A DNA stretch of 27,073 nt. It comes from Tolypothrix carrinoi HA7290-LM1. Its GTDB lineage: Bacteria > Cyanobacteriota > Cyanobacteriia > Cyanobacteriales > Nostocaceae. The notes below the pieces were generated by a model that saw only the letters and a program-made list of their open reading frames with translations, did no database searches and was not told the DNA's origin. Each line of letters starts with the position of its first letter. Positions within the stretch are counted from its first letter, which is position 1. A program made the position numbers and the translations under genes. Shown here in pieces: positions 2,741 through 12,177 of the stretch. The stretch spans positions 1 through 27,073 of the forward strand of contig JAHHIK010000110.1 in the NCBI GenBank assembly GCA_019358935.1, in the 5' to 3' direction.

Positions 2741-3151
2741 TTCACTAAAATCCTCTTTTTTACTAAAATTGCGACGTTTTTGACGTTTTGAGGAATTAAC
2801 GTTTTTTTCACACTCTCACCAGCTTACATGCTGCTGAGATTCTGAGATGCCGACGAAAGAAAGCGCCATTTCTCAGTTGTGCCTTCATAATCACCACTTA
2901 CTGCTAAATTTAGCTTGTGGTAACTTAACGATTCTTAACTTATCACATTTTGCCCGGTTTGCGTCGATCCACGTTAGTAAATCAGGTATCAAACACGAGG
3001 CTCTTAATTAATATGAATATCAGAAATTTTACAATTTGACACAGGTTTTCTCAGAAATCTTAAAAGTTAAGTCTTGAAACTTCCTTGCAATACATCCTCC
3101 TGGAGTGGCAGACTTTTTTTAGGGAAGATATTACGCGAAGTAGGTAGTTCA

Positions 3152-3733
3152 ATGACGGCATCAACAACCATTAACAAAGGCGATCGCTCCGCTACAAACG
3201 TTCTGCATCAAAAAGTTCTCGGTTCTCGTCGGTTCAGCAACTACTTGTGGGCAACTATCGTTACCTTTGGGTCTACAGGCTTTTTGCTGGCAGCGATATC
3301 CAGTTACCTCAAAGTCAATTTACTCATAGTTAGCGATCCAACTCAACTGGTATTCGTCCCTCAAGGATTGGTAATGGGGTTATATTCCGTTGCTGGCTAT
3401 CTTTTAGCCTTATACCTGTGGTTAGTAATTTTATGGGATGTGGGAGGCGGATACAACGAGTTCGATCGCTCAACTGGCAAAATAAAAATTTTCCGCTGGG
3501 GATTTCCTGGTAAAAACCGCCGCATTGAGCTTGACTTTGCTACACTTGATGTGCAATCTGTTAGAGTCGATCTCAAAGAAGGTCTAAATCCACGTCGCGC
3601 TCTTTACCTGAGAGCTAAAGGTCGCCGAGACATTCCCCTAACACGGGTAGGTCAACCATTATCGCTAACAGAGTTAGAAGTTCAAGGCGCCGAGTTAGCC
3701 CGCTTTTTGCAAGTTCCGCTGGAAGGACTTTAA
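3152..3733 (+). CDS. ycf4: Photosystem I assembly protein Ycf4
   Basis: GSRRFSNY, FVPQGLVM, WDVGGGYNEF, FRWGFPGKNRRI motifs; ATG at 3152 preferred over the TTG at 3074. Confidence 0.96.
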   Translation: MTASTTINKGDRSATNVLHQKVLGSRRFSNYLWATIVTFGSTGFLLAAISSYLKVNLLIVSDPTQLVFVPQGLVMGLYSVAGYLLALYLWLVILWDVGGGYNEFDRSTGKIKIFRWGFPGKNRRIELDFATLDVQSVRVDLKEGLNPRRALYLRAKGRRDIPLTRVGQPLSLTELEVQGAELARFLQVPLEGL

Positions 3734-3737
3734 AGAA

Positions 3738-3932
3738 TTTTAGATTTTGGATTTTGCGCTCATGTTGAGCTAGTCGCTTGGGGAGGCACACCGTTGGGCG
3801 GGGATGCCGACAGCCGCGGTAGTGCCTGAGGGTTTCCCGACTTGGGCTTTCAGTCGCGCCCTCGCGCTCGGTTTCCTCCGTACAAAGCGCATTCAAGGGC
3901 GGATTTGGGATTAAATGTCAATCCAAAATCCA
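3738..3932. repeat. Composite intergenic repeat: ATTTTGG/CCAAAAT arms enclosing GC-rich hairpin mini-elements
   Basis: ATTTTAG/ATTTTGG heptamers on the left, ATCCAAAATCCAA on the right; 45-nt unit at 3783-3827; separate CGCCCT...AGGGCG hairpin at 3857-3901. Confidence 0.7.
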
Positions 3933-3981
3933 ACACCCTCTTAGGAATGAGCGCAAAAAACCTGCCAGTTCCTTGATATTC

Positions 3982-4009
3982 GTAGGGATAATTCATGAAT
4001 TATCCCTAC
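3982..4009. repeat. GTAG-type REP-like palindrome, family B copy 1
   Basis: GTAGGGATAATTCATGAATTATCCCTAC, perfect 28-bp palindrome, enclosed by a 13-bp inverted repeat (AATGAGCGCAAAA 3946-3958 / TTTTGCGCTCATT 4020-4032). Related copy at 16009. Confidence 0.85.
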
Positions 4010-4189
4010 TTACGATCTCTTTTGCGCTCATTTTGCCTCTAAAATGTTTCCAAAGAGCATTAACTATAATGTCCCCCACAACACTGGTGGTTTAAGATAG
4101 CATTTTGACGGGTATGCTTAGTACCTGTGTAGTCTTTCATTCCACTTGACATCCTCACCGGGAGTCATCGCCGGGCGTGATTCCAAAAA

Positions 4190-5461
4190 TCACTTCTTGG
4201 ATCTTTCTGCTTCATAGCAACTGCCATCAGACTTATGCCTATCCGGTCTTACGTTCGCTCCACAGACTTTCACCGCAAGCCCTGCGGCGAGTATGTTATG
4301 TGCTGCGTTGACATCCCGGTCATGGGTTGCGCCGCAGTTGGGGCAAGTCCATTCACGGATATTCAAAGGCAACTTTTCAACGATGTAACCACACCCTCCA
4401 CACCGCTTAGAACTCGGAAACCAGCGGTCAATCTTGACCAACGTGCGACCATACCAATCACACTTGTACTCCAGTTGCCTCACCAATTCACCCCAGCTTG
4501 CATCACTGATAGAGAGAGCGAGTTTCCGGTTCTTCACCCTTACGGGTTCGCCAGTCGCTTCAAGTCGGGAAACCCTCAGGCAGGTGCTACAACGGGGGGG
4601 ACCCCCGCAACGCACTGCCGGACCAACGCGCTGGCTCACCATGTTCTTCACAGCCAAGTCCTCAACGGCGATGGTTTGGTTTTCACGCACCAATCGAGTC
4701 GTCAACTTGTGAAGGAAATCTTTTCGAGCATCACTGATTTCTTGATACACTTTAGCTACTTTGAGACGGGCTTGATGGCGATTGTTAGACCCTTTTTGCT
4801 TGCGGCTCAAAGCCTTCTGAGCTTTCTTGAGTTTGGCGCATTTCGTTTTAAAGCCTTTGGGATTGGCAATCTTTTCACCCGTACTCAAAGCGACCAAGCT
4901 TGTCACACCCAAATCAACCCCAATTTCATGCGGAGATTTCGGCAATGGCTCAATCTCGATATCCACCAACAAAGAAACCGTCCATCTACCAGAGGGCGAG
5001 AGTTTCACCGTGATAGTAGATGGGCTTGCACATAAAGGCAGTTCTCGACTCCACCGAATGGGCAACGGCTCAGAACACTTAGCCAAGTAGACTTGACCGT
5101 CCTTGAACTTGAATGCCGACTTGGTAAACTCTGCACTACCGCCATTCCGTTTCTTTTTAAATGTTGGGTATTTAGCCCGTCCGTCAAAGAAGTTCGAGAA
5201 TGCTTTTTGAAGATGCCTCAATCCTTGTTGCAATGGAACGCAGCTAACTTCATTGAGAAAATCAAGGTCGTCTTGCTTTTTCCATTCAGTCAGCATTGCC
5301 GAAGTATCGCTGTAACTGACTCGTTTTTTCTCACCGTACCAGGCTTCAGTTCTGATAGCCAAAGCGCGGTTATAGACCAAACGAGTACAGCCCATCGTCC
5401 TCTTGAGCAAGTTTTCCTGCTCAGACGTTGGATAGAAACGGTACTTCAAGGCTTTTTGCAT
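4190..5461 (-). CDS. tnpB: RNA-guided endonuclease TnpB with a 34-aa in-frame insertion
   Basis: KALKYRFYPT N-terminus; RuvC motifs GVDLG, AVEDL, DRDVNAA; zinc finger CGGC/CPNC; extra segment SQRVGP...EPVRV between NMV and KNRKLA. Confidence 0.95.
   Translation of the reverse strand: MQKALKYRFYPTSEQENLLKRTMGCTRLVYNRALAIRTEAWYGEKKRVSYSDTSAMLTEWKKQDDLDFLNEVSCVPLQQGLRHLQKAFSNFFDGRAKYPTFKKKRNGGSAEFTKSAFKFKDGQVYLAKCSEPLPIRWSRELPLCASPSTITVKLSPSGRWTVSLLVDIEIEPLPKSPHEIGVDLGVTSLVALSTGEKIANPKGFKTKCAKLKKAQKALSRKQKGSNNRHQARLKVAKVYQEISDARKDFLHKLTTRLVRENQTIAVEDLAVKNMVSQRVGPAVRCGGPPRCSTCLRVSRLEATGEPVRVKNRKLALSISDASWGELVRQLEYKCDWYGRTLVKIDRWFPSSKRCGGCGYIVEKLPLNIREWTCPNCGATHDRDVNAAHNILAAGLAVKVCGANVRPDRHKSDGSCYEAERSKK
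4537..4638 (-). repeat. 57-nt structured mini-element with a nested 45-nt element (4578-4622), inside tnpB
   Basis: Removing 102 nt restores ATG GTG AAG AAC CGG AAA (MVKNRK). Stems GCCAG-CGC/GCG-A-CTGGC (outer) and GGCAG-TGC/GCA-C-CTGCC (inner). Confidence 0.88.
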
Positions 5462-5600
5462 ACCTCACATTATAGCAAATATTCTGTGAGATACGCCAAT
5501 TCTTTGTAAAGCCGTCCTGTAAGGACGGGGTTTCCACCCACAATTTCTGATGACCGAAGAAGTGGAATGGAAAACTAGCTGAAAATTTTTGTAAGTAACA

Positions 5601-6395
5601 ATGCGCTTAAAAATTCCACAGTTTTTACTTGCTCTGGTGATTGTCGGTGGATTGATGTTGGGGGGATGTTCAGGGCAGCAGTCTGCTTCTAATAACGCTT
5701 CCCCATCCTCAAATGCGACCTCAGCAGCTACAGAAGCAAGCACCAAGACAACTACAGAGGCTAGCTCTGTATCTCAAAATACAAATAGTGAGAGTATCCC
5801 CGGAATGAAAGATTTACCAAGACTCGAAGGTAAGGCTACTGTGGTGATGACCGTGAAAGGTTCGCCAATTACTATCGAAGTAGACGGCACAAACGCTCCA
5901 ATCACCGCTGGGAACTTCGTCGATTTGGTGCAACGGGGTGTTTATGATGGGTTATCTTTCCATAGAGTAGTGCGCGAACCACAACCGTTTGTGGCTCAAG
6001 GTGGCGATCCCAAAAGTAAAGACCCCAAGACACCAGCACAACTTTTGGGAACAGGTGGTTTTGTTGACCCAAAAACTGGAACTGAGCGCTCTATACCTTT
6101 AGAAATTAAGCCAAAAGGTGCCCAGCAGCCAGTATACAGCAAGACGATTACTGAAGCGCCTGTTTTGACACATAAACTTGGTGCGGTAGCAATGGCGCGA
6201 TCGCAACAACCAGACTCTGCTTCCTCCCAGTTTTATTTTGCACTTGCCGATCTCGCCTTTCTAGATGGTAACTACGCCGTATTTGGCAATGTCACCCAAG
6301 GAATGGATGTAGTTAACAAAATTCAGCAAGGCGATCGCATTGACTCTGCTAAAGTCACCCAAGGTGCAGAAAACTTGAAAAATGGCGGGAAGTAA
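5601..6395 (+). CDS. Cyclophilin-type peptidyl-prolyl cis-trans isomerase, probable lipoprotein
   Basis: [47 protein letters not shown]; signal peptide ending LGGC. Confidence 0.95.
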
Positions 6396-6398
6396 AGA

Positions 6399-6689
6399 TT
6401 GGGTAATGGAAAATGGGTAATGGGTAATGGTGAGCCAGCGCGGTCTTGGGGAGGCAGTGCGTTGGGCGGCTCTGCCGACTTGAAGCATCTGCCGTGGTCT
6501 CCCCCATGAGCGACTTCAGAACCCCGAAGGGGGGCATGGGTAATCGGTAATTGGTAATGGGAATGGGAATTGAACATTCACGCATTAGCAATAAAGTCAA
6601 ATCTATGATTTATGATTTATGATTTATGACTTATGCCCCATGCCCCATGCCCAATTACCAATTACCTTTTTCCCAATTACCAATTACCA
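6399..6689. repeat. STRR-type heptamer arrays in inverted arrangement with a nested 57+45-nt mini-element at 6431-6532
   Basis: TGGGTAA/TGGTAAT units on the left; TATGATT x4, ATGCCCC and CCAATTA units on the right; inner 45-nt unit at 6451-6495. Confidence 0.85.
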
Positions 6690-8006
6690 GTTGTCACTGG
6701 TATTGGTCTTGTTTCCGCTTTGGGTACAAACTTAGAGGATAGTTGGCAGCAGTTAATTGCTGGTAAATCTGGAATTAAATTACATCAACCATTTCCAGAT
6801 TTAGAACCACGTCCTCTAGGATTGATTGGTAAGCAACCAGTTGAGTTAAGAATGCTGACTCAGCTGGTTGTTGCTTCAGCGTTGAAAGATGCTCTTTTAG
6901 TTCCACCTTTGCCTGATTGTGGCGTTGTCATCGGCTCAAGTCGCAGTCATCAAGCTTCCTGGGAAGAGATGGCAAGAGAGACTTGGGCGACGGGCGTAGG
7001 GGACAAGGGGGACAAGGGGAGGACACTTCCGTGCGGGGGTGGAGGAGTAAGGAACGTGTCCGTGGACAAGGAGGACAAGGAGACAAGGAGACAAGGAGAA
7101 TTTTTGAATAATACTCCCCAAGTCGTCCCCCCCTCCCCAAGTCGTCCCCCCCTCTCCCCATCCCCCCATCCCCCCCTCCCCCCCTCCCCCCCTCCTCTTT
7201 CTTGGTTGGATACTTTGCCGCATATGAACGCTTTAGCCGCAGCGCGACAAATCGGGGCAACAGGGATAGTTTTAGCACCGATGGCTGCATGTGCTACAGG
7301 AATTTGGGCGATCGCTCAAGCAGTTTTACTCATCCAAAGTGGGCAATGTCAGCGAGTAATTGCCGGCGCAGTCGAAGCACCGATTACACCACTAACCATA
7401 ACTGGCTTTCAGCAAATGGGTGCAAGCGCGAAAACAGGGGCTTATCCGTTTGATAAACACCGTGAAGGCTTGGTTTTAGGCGAAGGTGCCGCTGTGTTTG
7501 TCTTGGAATCAGCAGAGTTAGCAAAACAGCGTCAAGCAAAAATATATGGTCAAATTCTCGGTTTTGGCTTGACAGCGGATGCATATCATGCTTACGAGCT
7601 AGAGCCTGAGGGAAGAAGTGCGATCGCTTGTGTAAAGCAATGTTTAGAACGCAGTCACTTAACCTTCTCGGATATTGATTACATTCATGCTCACGGTACG
7701 GGTACTCAGATGAATGACCGAATAGAGAGTATGGTGATACAGCGGTTATTTCCTCACCAGGTGGCAATTAGTTCGACGAAAGGCGCTACAGGTCATACAT
7801 TGGGAGCATCGGGAGCTTTGGGTGTGGCTTTTTCGCTTCTGGCATTAAAGAATCAAATTTTACCGCCTTGTGTAGGGTTGAAAGAGGCTGAATTTGATTT
7901 AGATTTCGTAACGACAGCGCGTGAAGCTGAAATTCGGCAAGTGTTATGTTTGAGTTTCGGGTTTGGCGGACAGAATGCGGCGATCGCCTTGGCTAAAGAA
8001 TCTTAA
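6633..8006 (+). CDS. Beta-ketoacyl-ACP synthase (FabF-like) with a repeat-derived in-frame low-complexity insertion
   Basis: VVTGIGLVSALG; catalytic motifs AACATG, HAHGTGT, GHTLGA; SFGFGGQNA. Start is uncertain because the N-terminus is encoded by repeats. Confidence 0.9.
   Translation: MPHAPCPITNYLFPNYQLPVVTGIGLVSALGTNLEDSWQQLIAGKSGIKLHQPFPDLEPRPLGLIGKQPVELRMLTQLVVASALKDALLVPPLPDCGVVIGSSRSHQASWEEMARETWATGVGDKGDKGRTLPCGGGGVRNVSVDKEDKETRRQGEFLNNTPQVVPPSPSRPPLSPSPHPPLPPSPPPLSWLDTLPHMNALAAARQIGATGIVLAPMAACATGIWAIAQAVLLIQSGQCQRVIAGAVEAPITPLTITGFQQMGASAKTGAYPFDKHREGLVLGEGAAVFVLESAELAKQRQAKIYGQILGFGLTADAYHAYELEPEGRSAIACVKQCLERSHLTFSDIDYIHAHGTGTQMNDRIESMVIQRLFPHQVAISSTKGATGHTLGASGALGVAFSLLALKNQILPPCVGLKEAEFDLDFVTTAREAEIRQVLCLSFGFGGQNAAIALAKES
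6997..7196. repeat. Intragenic repeat block: GGACAAG arm, AT-rich core, C-rich arm; 45-nt mini-element at 7019-7063
   Basis: GGGGACAAG/GGAGACAA units, CCCCAAGTCGTCCCCCCCT x2, TCCCCCCC units. Removing 7019-7063 restores the 9-mer repeat register. Outer limits approximate. Confidence 0.85.
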
Positions 8007-8218
8007 GATTCACCCAAAAGTCGCACAGTCAAGCGAAGTCCAATTGCATTTCGATTGAGATTGGCTACTTCATAAGCGGCTAAATCTGGTGCATGGATAT
8101 CGATATCCTGCGATTGGGCATCCTATAAGGTTTCAACATCTTCCTTTGAAGCTTACGCCCAACGTGCGAAAATCGATATCATAATAAAAGTCGATAAAAC
8201 TTAAAATTTATTTACCAA

Positions 8219-9715
8219 ATGCTGATTTCCTCCTCTGGCTTGTCCAAGGTAAAAGACTCAGTAACAGAAAAAATTTTCTTCGGCAACGAACCCTCTGCCG
8301 AGTTACTTGCCATTCTTACGGTTTACTTAGTCCAAGGAATCTTAGGCTTGGGGCGTCTAGCCGTCAGCTTTTTCCTCAAAGATGAACTGGGACTAACTCC
8401 GGCTCAGGTTTCAGTACTAATGGGCATTGTCGCTATACCTTGGATTATCAAGCCACTGTTTGGTTTTATGTCCGATGGCTTGCCGATATTTGGCTATCGA
8501 CGACGCCCATACTTGATTTTATCGGGAATACTCGGAGCAATTTCTTGGGTGAGCCTCGCAACAATTGTTCATACTGCCTGGGCAGCTACTGGTGCGATCG
8601 CTCTTGGTTCTTTATCTGTCGCTGTTAGTGATGTCATAGTTGACTCACTGGTTGTCGAACGAGCTAGAGGAGAATCTCAAGCAAAAGCAGGTTCCCTACA
8701 ATCCCTTACCTGGGGTACTTCCGCCTTCGGAGGTTTGATCACAGCTTACTTTAGCGGAATGCTTTTACAGCATTTCACTACCCCCAATATCTTTTTGATT
8801 ACAGCCTCATTTCCGCTCATCGTTTGCGGGGTAGCTTGGTTGATTGCGGAAACACCTGTAAGCAAAACCCAACGGGAGAGGCAGTTCCCCACCCTTCGCA
8901 CGCGCCAAGACGGGGACTGCCTCACCAACGAAGATAACAACCACAGCAACTCCCCAACAATCAAGCATCAATTAAGCCAATTACGCAAAGCCATTTCTCA
9001 AAAAGCGATTTGGCTACCAACAGCGTTTCTCTTCATCTTGCTAGCAACGCCAAGCGCTGACTCAGCCTTTTTCTTTTTCACTACCAACGAACTGCACTTT
9101 CAACCAGAATTTTTAGGACGAGTGCGTTTGGTGACGAGTATTGCTTCTTTAGTTGGTGTCTGGATTTTTCAGCGTTTCCTAAAAACCGTTGAGTTTCGCG
9201 TCATCTTTGGTTGGAGTACCGTTATTTCCACAGTTTTGGGAATGACAATGCTGCTGCTGGTAACTCACACTAATCGGGCTTTGGGTATAGATGACCACTG
9301 GTTTAGTATCGGTGATAATCTCATTATCACAGTGATGGGACAAATTGCTTATATGCCAGTATTGGTGCTAGCAGCGAGGCTGTGTCCCCCAGGAGTGGAA
9401 GCGACATTATTTGCCCTCTTGATGTCGATCACAAACTTAGGCGGACTGGTTTCCCACGAATTAGGGGCAGTCTTAATGCATCAGCTAGGTATTACCGAGA
9501 CAAACTTCGATGCTATGTGGTTGTTAGTAGTAATTGCTAACCTCAGTCACCTTTTACCATTGCCATTCCTCAGCTGGCTGCCGACTGCGGACTCTCTAAA
9601 AGAAACAGCAAAAACATTGCCGCCAGCATCAGCAAACAATACAGAACAAGCGTTTGTACCTGATTTGATGCCTGAATTGATCGTGCGAGAACTAGAGTCA
9701 GAAGTAGCAGAATAA
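8219..9715 (+). CDS. Folate/biopterin transporter (BT1 family, MFS)
   Basis: PWIIKPLFGFMSDGLPIFGYRRRPY and CPPGVEATLFALLMS motifs; many hydrophobic helices. Confidence 0.94.
   Translation: MLISSSGLSKVKDSVTEKIFFGNEPSAELLAILTVYLVQGILGLGRLAVSFFLKDELGLTPAQVSVLMGIVAIPWIIKPLFGFMSDGLPIFGYRRRPYLILSGILGAISWVSLATIVHTAWAATGAIALGSLSVAVSDVIVDSLVVERARGESQAKAGSLQSLTWGTSAFGGLITAYFSGMLLQHFTTPNIFLITASFPLIVCGVAWLIAETPVSKTQRERQFPTLRTRQDGDCLTNEDNNHSNSPTIKHQLSQLRKAISQKAIWLPTAFLFILLATPSADSAFFFFTTNELHFQPEFLGRVRLVTSIASLVGVWIFQRFLKTVEFRVIFGWSTVISTVLGMTMLLLVTHTNRALGIDDHWFSIGDNLIITVMGQIAYMPVLVLAARLCPPGVEATLFALLMSITNLGGLVSHELGAVLMHQLGITETNFDAMWLLVVIANLSHLLPLPFLSWLPTADSLKETAKTLPPASANNTEQAFVPDLMPELIVRELESEVAE
8868..8924 (-). 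repeat. 57-nt structured mini-element inserted in-frame in the BT1 gene
   Basis: Minus strand TGA-GGCAG-TCC...GGA-A-CTGCC-TCT-CCCGTTGGG. Removal gives AGC AAA ACC AAC GAA GAT (SKTNED). Confidence 0.8.
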
Positions 9716-9765
9716 AAAGGATTAGGAAGAAAGAAGACAAAGAAGACAAGGGATCGCACAAAGCA

Positions 9766-9788
9766 GTAGGGGCGGGGTTTCCCCGCCC
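9766..9788. repeat. GTAG-headed GC-rich hairpin (REP-like)
   Basis: GTAG-GGGCGGGG-TTT-CCCCGCCC between the BT1 and carotenoid oxygenase genes. Confidence 0.65.
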
Positions 9789-9860
9789 AATGCAATATGA
9801 TGCGATCGCGCCCAATTTATAATCCAAAATTCTAAATATCAAATATAAAACAAAATTACT

Positions 9861-11363
9861 ATGCAGAGTTTTCAACTTTACGAACACGCTTCGACAATTC
9901 CTGATAAATCTTACACTCGCGGAGATTGGCAAGAGGGATATCAATCTCTCAAAGAAGAATTTGATTATTGGATTGATGATGTTGAAGGAGAAATTCCACC
10001 AGAACTAAACGGTACGCTGTTTAGAAATGGTCCGGGATTATTAGATGTAAACGGGCAACACATTCATCATCCATTTGATGGTGATGGAATGATTAGCCGG
10101 ATTTCATTCTCCAATGGTCGCGCTCACTTTCGCAACCGTTTTATCCGCACAGAAGCTTATTTAGAAGAACAAAAAGCTGGTAAAATCCTTTATCGCGGTG
10201 TCTTTGGTACGCAAAAACCCGGTGGTTGGCTAGCTAATATCTTCGACTTTAAACTGAAAAATATTGCCAACACCAATGTTATTTATTGGGGTGATAAACT
10301 ATTGGCGCTGTGGGAAGCAGCAGAACCTCATCTTCTCGATCCCCACACGTTGGAAACTTTAGGTAAAGAACACTTTAACGGTGTTTTGTCAGAAGGTGAA
10401 GCTTTCGGCGCACATCCACGCTTCGATCCAAGTTCTGCTAGAGATAACGGTGCTACTTGTTTGGTAAACTTTTCTATCAAGCCGGGACTATCCACGACAA
10501 TTACAATTTTTGAGTTAGATATAACTGGCAAGATTGTCAGAAAACACGCTCATAGTGTTCCCGGTTTTTGTTTCATCCACGATTTTGTTATTACTCCCAA
10601 TTACTGCATACTCTTTCAAAATCCTGTCGCTTTCAATCCTATACCTTTCGCTTTAGGAATCCGTGGTGCTGGAGAATGCATTAAGTTTCAGCCAAATCAG
10701 CCAACTCAGATTATAATCATTTCCCGCAACCCCCAAGAAAAGGGCGTAAAAATTCTCGAAACTCAATCAGGTTTTGTCTTTCACCACGCTAATGCTTTTG
10801 AGCAAGGCGACGAAATTGTTGTAGACTCAATTTGTTACGAATCTTTTCCAGAAGTCGAACCCGAAAGCAATTTTCGCCAAGTTGATTTTGAAGCACTTTC
10901 ACCCGGACATTTATGGCGGTTTCATCTCAACCTTAAGGATAAGACGGTGCGACGGGATTTGTTACTAGACAGGTGTTGTGAGTTTCCCAGCGTGCATCAA
11001 GATAAAGTCGGACACCCCTATCGTTATTTATACATTGGTGCGGCTGATGCCAAAACTGGTAATGCACCTTTGCAAGCTTTTGTCAAGGTGGATTTAGAAT
11101 CTGGGGAAAAACAACTTTGGAGTGCTGCGCCGCGTGGGTTTGTCAGTGAGCCGATTTTTGTACCGCGTCCAGGTTCTGACAAAGAAGATGATGGCTGGGT
11201 GCTAGCTTTAGTTTATGATTCGACTCATCACCGCTCAGATGTGGTGATTTTAGATGCTAGTGATTTCAGTAAAAGACCAGTTGCACGGCTGCATCTGAAA
11301 CATCATATTCCCTATGGTTTGCATGGCAGCTTTACGAATGAAGTGTTTGCACCACTTAATTGA
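9861..11363 (+). CDS. Carotenoid cleavage oxygenase (RPE65/CCD family)
   Basis: GTLFRNGPG, HPFDGDG, ANTNV, candidate iron-ligand histidines in GAHP, IHDF, FHHAN, GLHG; EFP and EDDGW motifs. Confidence 0.94.
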   Translation: MQSFQLYEHASTIPDKSYTRGDWQEGYQSLKEEFDYWIDDVEGEIPPELNGTLFRNGPGLLDVNGQHIHHPFDGDGMISRISFSNGRAHFRNRFIRTEAYLEEQKAGKILYRGVFGTQKPGGWLANIFDFKLKNIANTNVIYWGDKLLALWEAAEPHLLDPHTLETLGKEHFNGVLSEGEAFGAHPRFDPSSARDNGATCLVNFSIKPGLSTTITIFELDITGKIVRKHAHSVPGFCFIHDFVITPNYCILFQNPVAFNPIPFALGIRGAGECIKFQPNQPTQIIIISRNPQEKGVKILETQSGFVFHHANAFEQGDEIVVDSICYESFPEVEPESNFRQVDFEALSPGHLWRFHLNLKDKTVRRDLLLDRCCEFPSVHQDKVGHPYRYLYIGAADAKTGNAPLQAFVKVDLESGEKQLWSAAPRGFVSEPIFVPRPGSDKEDDGWVLALVYDSTHHRSDVVILDASDFSKRPVARLHLKHHIPYGLHGSFTNEVFAPLN

Positions 11364-11500
11364 GAAATGAGGATAGGTAGATCGCCCATGAAGAGATTTT
11401 AGTATTTGTCAGGGGCGATCGCTATCCTTGATTTGGTCTAACTATCACACCCATCTTCATCCTCAGAAAAATATAATATTTTCTTAACATATTTTCCAGA

Positions 11501-12177
11501 ATGCCAGCTAGAGATACCATCCACGAAATCGTCAAACAAGCCATAATAAAAGATGGATGGAATATCACCGATGATCCCTATGTTATTTCCTATGGCGACC
11601 GCTTCTTGTTTGTAGACCTGGGAATACAGGGACGTTTTATTGGGGCTGAACGTGAAAATAGCCAGATTGCGATTGAGATTAAAGAATTTCGAGGTCGATC
11701 TGCGCTCGCTGATTTAGAACAAGCCATAGGACAGTATGTGTTATATCGACTACTGCTTAAAAGAGTTGACCCAGAACGGGAAATTTATCGCTTCGCTCCT
11801 GGGTGTGGGGGAGCCACTGCGGTGGACGGGTTTCCCGGCATAAAGCAAGTGGCGTTGTGGGGTGTGGGGTGTGGGGAATACCTTGAAGATTGCTTGAAGA
11901 TTGCTTGACTGAGCAATGGGGTCTAAAACCCCACCGTCTTTTACGGTGTATAAAGGCGCGTTGGGGTTTGAATCCCCATCTAACCGAACCCTACACCCCA
12001 CACCCTACCCCCTTACACCCTGTTCAACTGGCTATTTCTGATATAACCTATGATGAAATATTTAACGAGCCAATTGGTGAAGTTGTGATTAGTGACTTAC
12101 CAATGCAATTACTGGTTGTAGATGTTGAAAAAATAAAGGTGAAACTATGGATACCGCCGCGCTCCGGGAAGTTGTAA
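11501..12177 (+). pseudogene. xisH: XisH-family protein interrupted by a 239-bp insertion
   Basis: MPARDTIHEIVKQAIIKDGWNITDDP...IAIEIKEF...AIGQYVLY...PEREIY ends at 11788 and resumes as LAISDITYDEIF at 12028. The rejoined frame is 145 aa. xisI follows. Confidence 0.9.
11789..12027 (+). mobile_element. 239-bp non-coding insertion, candidate non-autonomous IS200/IS605-type element, with a nested 45-nt unit at 11811-11855
   Basis: Follows TTAT, ends in TCAA, no target duplication; inverted TGTGGGG / CCCCACA-type arms; internal hairpins. Confidence 0.75.

Follow-up and report, generated by a model that had tools for sequence, protein, structure and literature searches.

The stretch of DNA analysed here (the window, 27,073 nucleotides) is contig C110 of the 7.96-Mb, 42% GC draft genome of the cyanobacterium Tolypothrix carrinoi HA7290-LM1. 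It contains nine copies of a gene-less DNA element of the small dispersed repeat (SDR) kind, which is a widespread, genuine mini-element with a structurally proven fold. The element has a short form, most often 45 nucleotides (nt) long, and a long form, in which the rod of the short one is extended by a T at its 5' end and a mini-hairpin at its 3' end. An even chance (probability about 0.5) is given to a two-tier reading of its spread, in which a non-autonomous mini-element undergoes rare enzyme-driven insertion and is then spread by homology.

The family was delimited by an unbiased scan of the genome for a 5-bp GC-rich stem and a 3-bp stem with a 1-nt 3' bulge. The scan has a peak of 328 hits at a stem span of 41, which is that of the 45-nt unit; with a 2-nt or a 3-nt bulge, 23 and 33 hits are found at this span. 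When left arms are scanned, extra peaks appear at 86 and 131, corresponding to nested units (+45 and +90). Iterative de-nesting yielded 560 units (449, 85, 24 and 2 in rounds 1-4), 299 of them distinct, compared with 14 hits in the reversed genome. This number is a lower bound; 146 left and 81 right half-units are left over. Other units are enclosed by 111 of the about 560. A rough classifier assigns 225 of the 560 to short tandem arrays and 93 to other members of the family; the remaining 242 lie elsewhere, many of them in other repeats. An artefact is excluded by the scan peak, by the reversed-genome control and by the Logan contigs of sequencing run X1, possibly from the same sample, which have 0 differences from the window at 3000-4008, 3984-6419 and 7204-11816, so that the odd variants at those loci are not assembly errors; block variants of the element also occur in nine of ten congeners. 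Six contigs of 63-118 kb (C7, C9, C15, C24, C29 and C42), possibly plasmids or recent islands, carry no unit.

The length of the inserts was derived from empty junctions elsewhere in the genome. Such a junction is lacking for 64 of 542 units, and 253 units give one clear insert length. The short form measures 45 nt in 126 of these 253 cases, 46 nt in 36 and 48 nt in 12, the remainder being scattered. The 52 clean long forms have 55, 56, 57 and 58 nt in 15, 9, 18 and 9 cases, and one has 52 nt. The initial annotation of the window, made from its letters alone, held the total length to be fixed at 45 or 57; it is instead modal, with 46 nt common and the long form mostly 55-58 nt. The reading frame had been taken to be preserved as well. 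Within open reading frames (ORFs) of at least 250 residues, 39 of 46 copies have 45 nt and none has 46 nt, compared with 45 of 328 copies of 46 nt outside, a contrast that arises partly by construction, because a frameshift would drop the ORF from the count. Preservation of the frame is better explained by filtering within genes, and the element itself does not keep the reading frame. The idea that the long form arises from an abundant 12-nt element that hosts a 45-nt unit was rejected, since about 3 stand-alone tails were found against 77 long tails.

The top strand of the element folds into a rod made of a 5-bp stem, the 1-nt 3' bulge, a 3-4-bp stem, an internal loop, a 5-6-bp apical stem and a 3-nt loop, with two free bases left at each end. 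Covariation was tested on copies retrieved with a pattern that fixes 16 positions and requires no pairing, and that matched at least 121 loci from named genomes. All 108 distinct copies among the matches listed, which come from other genomes and include chance matches, were aligned and compared with a structure in which positions 3-10 pair to 35-43, leaving 38 as the bulge, and positions 15-20 to 24-29. In these 108 copies 92.1% of the cells are paired, compared with 71.4 after shuffling, and both sides have changed in 265 cells compared with 85.9. Covariation is found in 10 of 14 pairs, with kinship ignored and 3 of the pairs fixed by the pattern; slid control structures score far lower. Pair 16-28 is G.A in about half of these aligned copies. 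In the present genome, 292 of 348 units keep all five apical pairs tested. The top strand folds better than the bottom strand in all eight window units examined with RNA parameters and in seven of eight with DNA parameters.

The fold is thus conserved by compensatory change, as the initial annotation had proposed. Its further suggestion, that the element is recognised by fold rather than by sequence, stands only in part: several unpaired bases that the parser leaves free are near-invariant (A2 98%, T13 97%, T21 95%, T31 98% and G44 96% in this genome), and variants with a broken fold have been amplified too.

The ends of the element are constrained in a manner that becomes apparent when they are joined. 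The last two and the first two bases together read G-N-R-A in 443 of 461 short units (382 GTGA, 41 GCAA and 13 GTAA), although these four bases are not constrained by the parser. When the long form is folded as a circle, its 5' T pairs across the junction and the helix of the tail, which covaries in one copy, is completed. The end-joining pattern suggests a closed rod. The tips of the rods carry GNA and pyrimidine triloops, which are stable in DNA, and together with the lack of a sense bias in ORFs described below these argue for DNA rather than RNA as the mobile form.

A loose pattern for the element matches 107 of 401 genomes of the order, compared with a total of 2 hits for the reversed pattern. 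Carriers make up 27 of 34 genomes in the family to which the present genome belongs, 17 of the 21 from family f17, and there are hits in other families. A covariance model detects the element in 21 of 141 genomes of the phylum and in 0 of 95 from families f36-f52. Named carriers include records of Nostoc, Brasilonema, Scytonema, Tolypothrix, Calothrix, Rivularia, Nodularia, Okeania, Chondrocystis and Xenococcaceae, and N. punctiforme PCC 73102 is among the carriers. Matches in Collinsella and other actinobacteria were rejected as chance, as only 2 of 5 test pairs were kept. GenBank phages contain no real match to the family, and Rfam gave no match over the window units or, at E<=1, in 12 loci.

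Exact empty sites show that this gene-less, self-nesting family is mobile and inserts precisely, in agreement with the initial annotation. The BT1 transporter gene has an exact empty allele, 57 nt shorter (77 compared with 134 nt), in four congeners (G003, G004, G005 and G010); the site is filled in G001 and G009 and filled with a further 21 or 42 nt in G006 and G008. A tnpB paralogue on contig C13 is 102 nt shorter than the gene in the window (102 compared with 204 nt). Paralogues of the repeat that interrupts xisH are either empty (93 nt) or filled (138 and 184 nt), with different variants at the same site. No target duplication is present at these exact empty sites (BT1 +57, tnpB +102, xisH repeat +45).

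Insertion occurs in either orientation and mostly into the G-rich strand of other repeats. The 148 contexts examined in this genome have G at -8 and W-W-G-R-G at -5 to -1, and this loose 5' motif recurs in 116 copies from other genomes. The long forms are preceded by Y-G-G in 44 of 52 cases, with T as the next base in 43. On plasmid pNPUN02 of N. punctiforme the next base of a 56-nt long form, whose host is presumably an IS630-like remnant, is C, which indicates that the 5' T is part of the element. At 55 of 442 sites the homology to any other filled site is at most 3 nt over both sides, and these 55 have G at -3 (42), G at -1 (44) and W at -4 (45), with only a weak 3' preference. Orientation is even in ORFs (38 vs 40) and downstream of genes (146 vs 134). 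Where two different units stand head to tail, the arrangement fits a target that lies only on the 5' side and is left intact by insertion. In a separate case, four and five identical 45-nt units follow one another head to tail in arrays at loci L192 and L200 of genome G585, in an IS605-type 3' region, with junctions that fit slippage taking in one host G. A programmable guide was also considered, because position 4 and the first 3' host base covary in the 148 contexts (67/18 vs 12/32, p 1.6e-8). The signal is weaker in other genomes (p 0.03), the same context bears other variants in other genera, and the proposal was set aside: the contexts are not independent and the linkage gradient described below explains the position-4 signal.

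Much of the copy number appears to come from hitch-hiking and short-patch copying, as indicated by shared flanks, a linkage gradient and recurrent patches. At least 5 nt of flank on both sides are shared with another filled site by 370 of 442 short units, compared with 42 of 1500 motif-matched controls. Linkage to the host context, calculated for 205 units in 15 contexts, is 0.84 at position 1, 0.7 at positions 4 and 42 and 0.06-0.2 in the apical hairpin, a symmetrical fall from the ends to the tip. Patches that break the fold recur in the outer stem at about 21 loci and in the internal loop at about 72, and affect several cores; the internal-loop patch is present in 9 of 10 congeners and absent from 20 other genomes. 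The identical variants seen in G016, G389 and G335 (39 loci) each lie within one host repeat or one tnpB family, and such single-variant bursts were rejected as fresh transposition since they ride one host repeat. Recurrent block substitutions of 5-13 nt, seen in this genome and its genus g1, are shuffled by recombination as modules and in most cases disrupt pairing; a search for donors left most of them without one. Short-patch conversion may be unusually active in this genus.

The homology evidence can be taken further, to a rival in which no dedicated enzyme exists. Single-stranded DNA fragments consisting of flank, hairpin and flank would anneal by short homology at replication forks, in a process resembling SPDIR (double illegitimate recombination of short patches) or gene conversion. 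The tight rod would juxtapose its flanks and loop out, giving precise insertion, new contexts would be reached stepwise via microhomology, and the fold would be selected for flank juxtaposition and nuclease resistance. This passive explanation accords with the common flanks of 84% of the copies, the linkage gradient and the amplification of fold-breaking patches. Nearly all targets are repeats, long-form sites and the element junction both contain GG-T (43 of 52 continue with T), the distribution of the family is matched by no enzyme and several contigs of 50-118 kb are free of copies. Homology copying as the whole story is weighed against by the unique gene sites, by the 55 low-homology sites that keep the motif and by hits in a prophage. 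This prophage of genome G417 (L183-L186, 12.9-66 kb) has 15 covariance-model hits in 53 kb whose flanks are mutually unrelated, and its 12.9-kb host flank has none. The passive explanation is a possible one, and the less probable of the two. The unit density of the prophage is about four times that of the present genome, and its units lie mostly at gene boundaries.

The two-tier reading accounts for these sites by new insertion that needs no homology, as at the unique coding sites (BT1, tnpB and the IS630-like remnant), in the prophage and at the low-homology sites. A single-strand nuclease/ligase encoded by the host or by an element, and guessed to be HUH-like, would bind the bulged rod and cut 2 nt from its foot. 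The rod would then be closed into a single-stranded, probably circular DNA with a GNRA junction loop, and in the long form the helix would continue across the circle junction. The circle would be joined 3' of the target motif in a new site. Indirect evidence shows that the element, once in a repeat, gains copies by riding on larger repeats and IS605-type elements and through the copying of short patches from one similar locus to another, which also swaps cores and spreads fold-breaking patches. HUH chemistry stays the lead guess because IS605-type ends in this genome have the same layout of 5 bp, 3 bp and a 1-nt 3' bulge (a peak at span 21).

Several observations weigh against enzyme-driven insertion of this kind. 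The GNRA ends can also be read linearly, the first and last bases forming a G.T or A.C pair next to a sheared G.A, and loops of the GNRA kind are typical of RNA. Neither circles nor circularly permuted copies were observed; there are 0 true end junctions in this genome, and the 17 found in 6 of 301 genomes are all explicable as same-site insertion or slippage. On five long chromosomes no strand pattern by replichore is visible and the strands are interleaved, as judged by eye with origins unmapped. A patch that deletes the conserved T-T-G of the internal loop has reached 72 copies. None of the seven Y1 transposase genes of the genome has a unit within 1.5 kb, and no transposase-like gene was recognised by eye among the 16 ORFs flanked by units on both sides. 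In a co-occurrence sample of 39 carrier and 41 non-carrier genomes, Y1 genes are present in 35 of the former and 32 of the latter, hits to a RAYT (REP-associated tyrosine transposase) query, one query only, occur in 12 and 13, and two genomes with over 40 copies have no Y1 gene. Two cuts 2 nt from the foot of one hairpin also clash with the IS200/IS605 geometry as given in a section of PMC3479197.

The initial annotation had no mobilising enzyme in view, and none was found among Y1, RAYT, reverse transcriptase (RT), IS110 and Rep_1 genes or unit-flanked ORFs; by presence of Y1 and RAYT in the 39 and 41 genomes, no enzyme tracks the family. None of the RT, IS110 and Rep_1 genes is flanked by units, and one RT gene has a unit at 486 nt. 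No mobilising gene was recognised among the 40 of 83 proteins scanned in the G417 prophage, which by eye has only structural genes in common with a second prophage. Upstream of divergent IS110-like genes on C12 (2268-3515), C98 and C127 lies conserved, structured sequence of about 300 nt, possibly a bridge-RNA region.

An RNA route is unlikely. According to it, the element would be cut from transcripts as a circular or linear 45-nt RNA and reinserted by reverse transcription, with a borrowed group II intron RT, or by RNA-templated repair. The GNRA junction with its purine at the third position, the G.T and G.A pairs that favour one strand and the seven near full-length RT genes of the genome suit this route. 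However, orientation is unbiased both in ORFs and downstream of genes, the RT genes look group II-type and apart from the one at 486 nt are not beside units, GNA triloops suit DNA, and Rfam has no match. Trans-mobilisation by a resident IS200/IS605 TnpA or a RAYT that mistakes the bulged stem for an insertion sequence end is very unlikely. In its favour are the stem and bulge layout shared with the IS605-type ends, the absence of duplications and the 5' position of the target determinant. Against it, a guide tetranucleotide cannot fit in 2 free bases, element and target do not covary on the 5' side, neither co-occurrence nor adjacency is found, and the two RAYT-like genes of the genome carry other repeats.

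The genome also contains a 23-25-nt two-hairpin family (56 hits) with GNA-type loops. Some of its copies sit at an HIP1 site, as described for SDR5, and its insertion sites include members of the 45-nt family and the loop in the tail of the long form. It is present in 26 of the 39 carriers and in 8 of the 41 non-carriers, kin among them not being independent, and this co-occurrence may point to machinery used by both families or to a host that tolerates them. It is found outside the Nostocaceae as well: G122 has 39 copies and none of the 45-nt family. Tentatively, the unit may be a covalently closed single-stranded DNA rod of 45-58 nt, opened at its GNRA loop by a chromosomal enzyme not yet described, which would mobilise this 24-nt SDR-type family as well. 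It would then be a fold-defined selfish DNA of less than 60 nt whose insertion follows a chemistry of its own, requiring little target sequence and no target duplication.

Ever since the SDRs were described in 2008, it has been a question how the smallest cyanobacterial repeats move. A larger and information-rich family makes movement testable by its fold, exact ends, target motif and predicted circle junction, and the split between new insertion and homology-driven spread is measurable. Proteins that look functional (BT1, FabF-like, TnpB) are lengthened by 15-34 residues through the element, which disrupts other proteins and also settles in prophages. An enzyme, if there is one, would be a scar-free integrase of small inserts with a structure-defined donor; if none exists, the family would show that host recombination alone can maintain a selfish element across an order.

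The window encodes psbD/psbC, ycf4, an IS605-type tnpB, a cyclophilin, a fabF-like gene, BT1, a carotenoid oxygenase and xisH/xisI, and its sole Rfam match, IsrR, lies away from the hairpin units. Direct inspection of the sequence found the eight units of the initial annotation at their positions, with the stems, bulge and lengths given there, and the outer units measure 57 nt once the inner ones are taken out. A covariance model built from other genomes scores three window units strongly and two weakly and misses the one at 7019, so that several window copies are patched variants. The ninth unit, not in the earlier list, is a decayed outer short unit (3767-3857, + strand). Its left arm (3767-3782) and its patched right arm (3829-3857) fit the 16+29 split of the family, and nested after its position 16 is a short unit of 45-46 nt with an altered 3' end (3783-3828, + strand; E 0.28, a weak match). 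Relatives lack the 3783 unit in their ycf4-ppi intergenic region.

An in-frame long unit, 57 nt without its insert, occupies 4537-4638 (- strand) inside tnpB, within an IS605-type element at 4146-5549 whose limits were set by a 1404-nt skip and whose product is matched by Pfam OrfB_IS605. Its excision restores TnpB (...KNMVKNRKLA...), as had been claimed. Nested in it is a short unit with atypical ends (4578-4622, - strand; E 3e-10), which the structure parser places at 4577-4621. This tnpB-only IS605-type element is missing from congeners and from contigs of two runs. The 34-residue insert falls a few residues past the putative RuvC glutamate, and the TnpB may be inactive. A second long unit, again 57 nt without its insert, is at 6431-6532 (+ strand), where a heptamer array separates the cyclophilin gene from the fabF-like gene; the array is empty in G001. 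Its outer stem had been called decayed; it is indeed altered, but by the fold-breaking patch found at about 21 loci, and thus is a recurrent variant. The canonical short unit nested in it (6451-6495, + strand; E 1.5e-13) corresponds to a 45-nt skip in the contigs of four runs, which may stem from paralogous empty hosts.

A short unit with a 6-bp outer stem and a patched core (7019-7063, + strand) is in frame in a tandem array of the fabF-like ORF, which matches the Pfam ketoacyl synthase family; G009 and others have the array without the unit. The surrounding in-frame tandem-repeat loop (6960-7210) is hypervariable and different in every congener (117-270 nt between anchors), and in G003 it contains two other units. 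The BT1 gene carries its 57-nt long unit in frame and antisense (8868-8924, - strand). Finally, xisH is interrupted by a non-coding repeat of 239 nt (11789-12027, + strand), which we take to be IS605-type from its end motifs. The Pfam match of XisH ends at residue 96, and the reading frame picks up again in the downstream piece. Paralogues of the repeat are scattered across the genome, which has about 45 copies of a related hairpin motif. In its heptamer array is a canonical short unit (11811-11855, + strand; E 6.6e-11).

By the features tested, the family is not REP/REPIN, an IS605 derivative, a miniature inverted-repeat transposable element (MITE) or attC. Integron attC sites have conserved AAC/GTT core ends, and the consensus of the present family ends without AAC/GTT on both strands. 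IS200/IS605 elements have a lagging-strand orientation bias, and palindrome-associated transposable elements (PATE) are conceived as their non-autonomous derivatives. Compared with what a portion of PMC3479197 states of IS200/IS605, the absence of target duplication, the 5' target determinant, degenerate here, and the 5+3 bulged stem are alike. IS200/IS605 elements have two subterminal hairpins, and in each a 5' guide tetranucleotide pairs with the cleavage site; the present family has a single hairpin in place of the two ends, breaks that lie 2 nt from its foot, no guide sequence (no covariation with the 5' flank) and a degenerate target. On the five long chromosomes viewed by eye, whose origins are unmapped, no replichore pattern is visible. 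With repetitive extragenic palindromes (REP/REPIN) and their RAYT, as portrayed in parts of PMC3116915, PMC3733652 and PMC3479197, it has in common hundreds of short, imperfect, bulged, non-autonomous hairpins in nested higher-order arrays and a proposed single-strand excision intermediate. It differs from them in its ends (R-A and G-Y, with breaks after G), in having neither a GTAG/CGTC tag nor a CT cleavage site, in being a single rod and not a REP doublet, in lying often inside ORFs, and in lacking a unit-flanked RAYT gene and, with one query, RAYT co-occurrence. MITEs, which according to a section of PMC3733652 have transposase terminal inverted repeats, a target duplication and 70-300 bp, contrast with 45-58 nt and no duplication at exact empty sites. 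The SPDIR microindels of Acinetobacter baylyi, in the portion of 10.1101/2023.11.22.568220 concerned, resemble the recurrent block variants in that short patches are copied between loci by microhomology, but represent a rare mutation process with variable products and not a conserved family.

The family thus stands closest to the SDRs in kind. SDR1-8 of Nostoc, reported by Elhai in 2008, are said to be 21-27 nt long, to have no known enzyme, to insert precisely into heptamer arrays, minitransposons and their own copies, and to have a structure with compensatory changes. In all these respects other than length, and in the Nostoc host group and the lack of genes, the present family reportedly resembles them. 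A composite of a 21-nt and a 24-nt SDR was rejected: cores without either arm number 4 of 322, and core-less outer units are found once in this genome and 19 times in 121 genomes, with mixed length. The literature searched, which did not include Elhai's paper with its supplements or most subscription papers, has no account of a 45-nt family, and the parts concerned of two papers on trnL P6b indels (PMC4476775, PMC3488679) give no sequences for comparison. Because N. punctiforme PCC 73102 carries the family, it is quite possible that it is partly catalogued in Elhai's paper. What sets the family apart from the SDRs as reported is its length of 45-48 and 55-58 nt compared with 21-27 nt, and its single long bulged rod in place of two small hairpins. 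It is, moreover, found outside the Nostocaceae, to which SDRs are confined according to a passage of PMC5861425 (SDR content is also quoted in part of PMC4390886).

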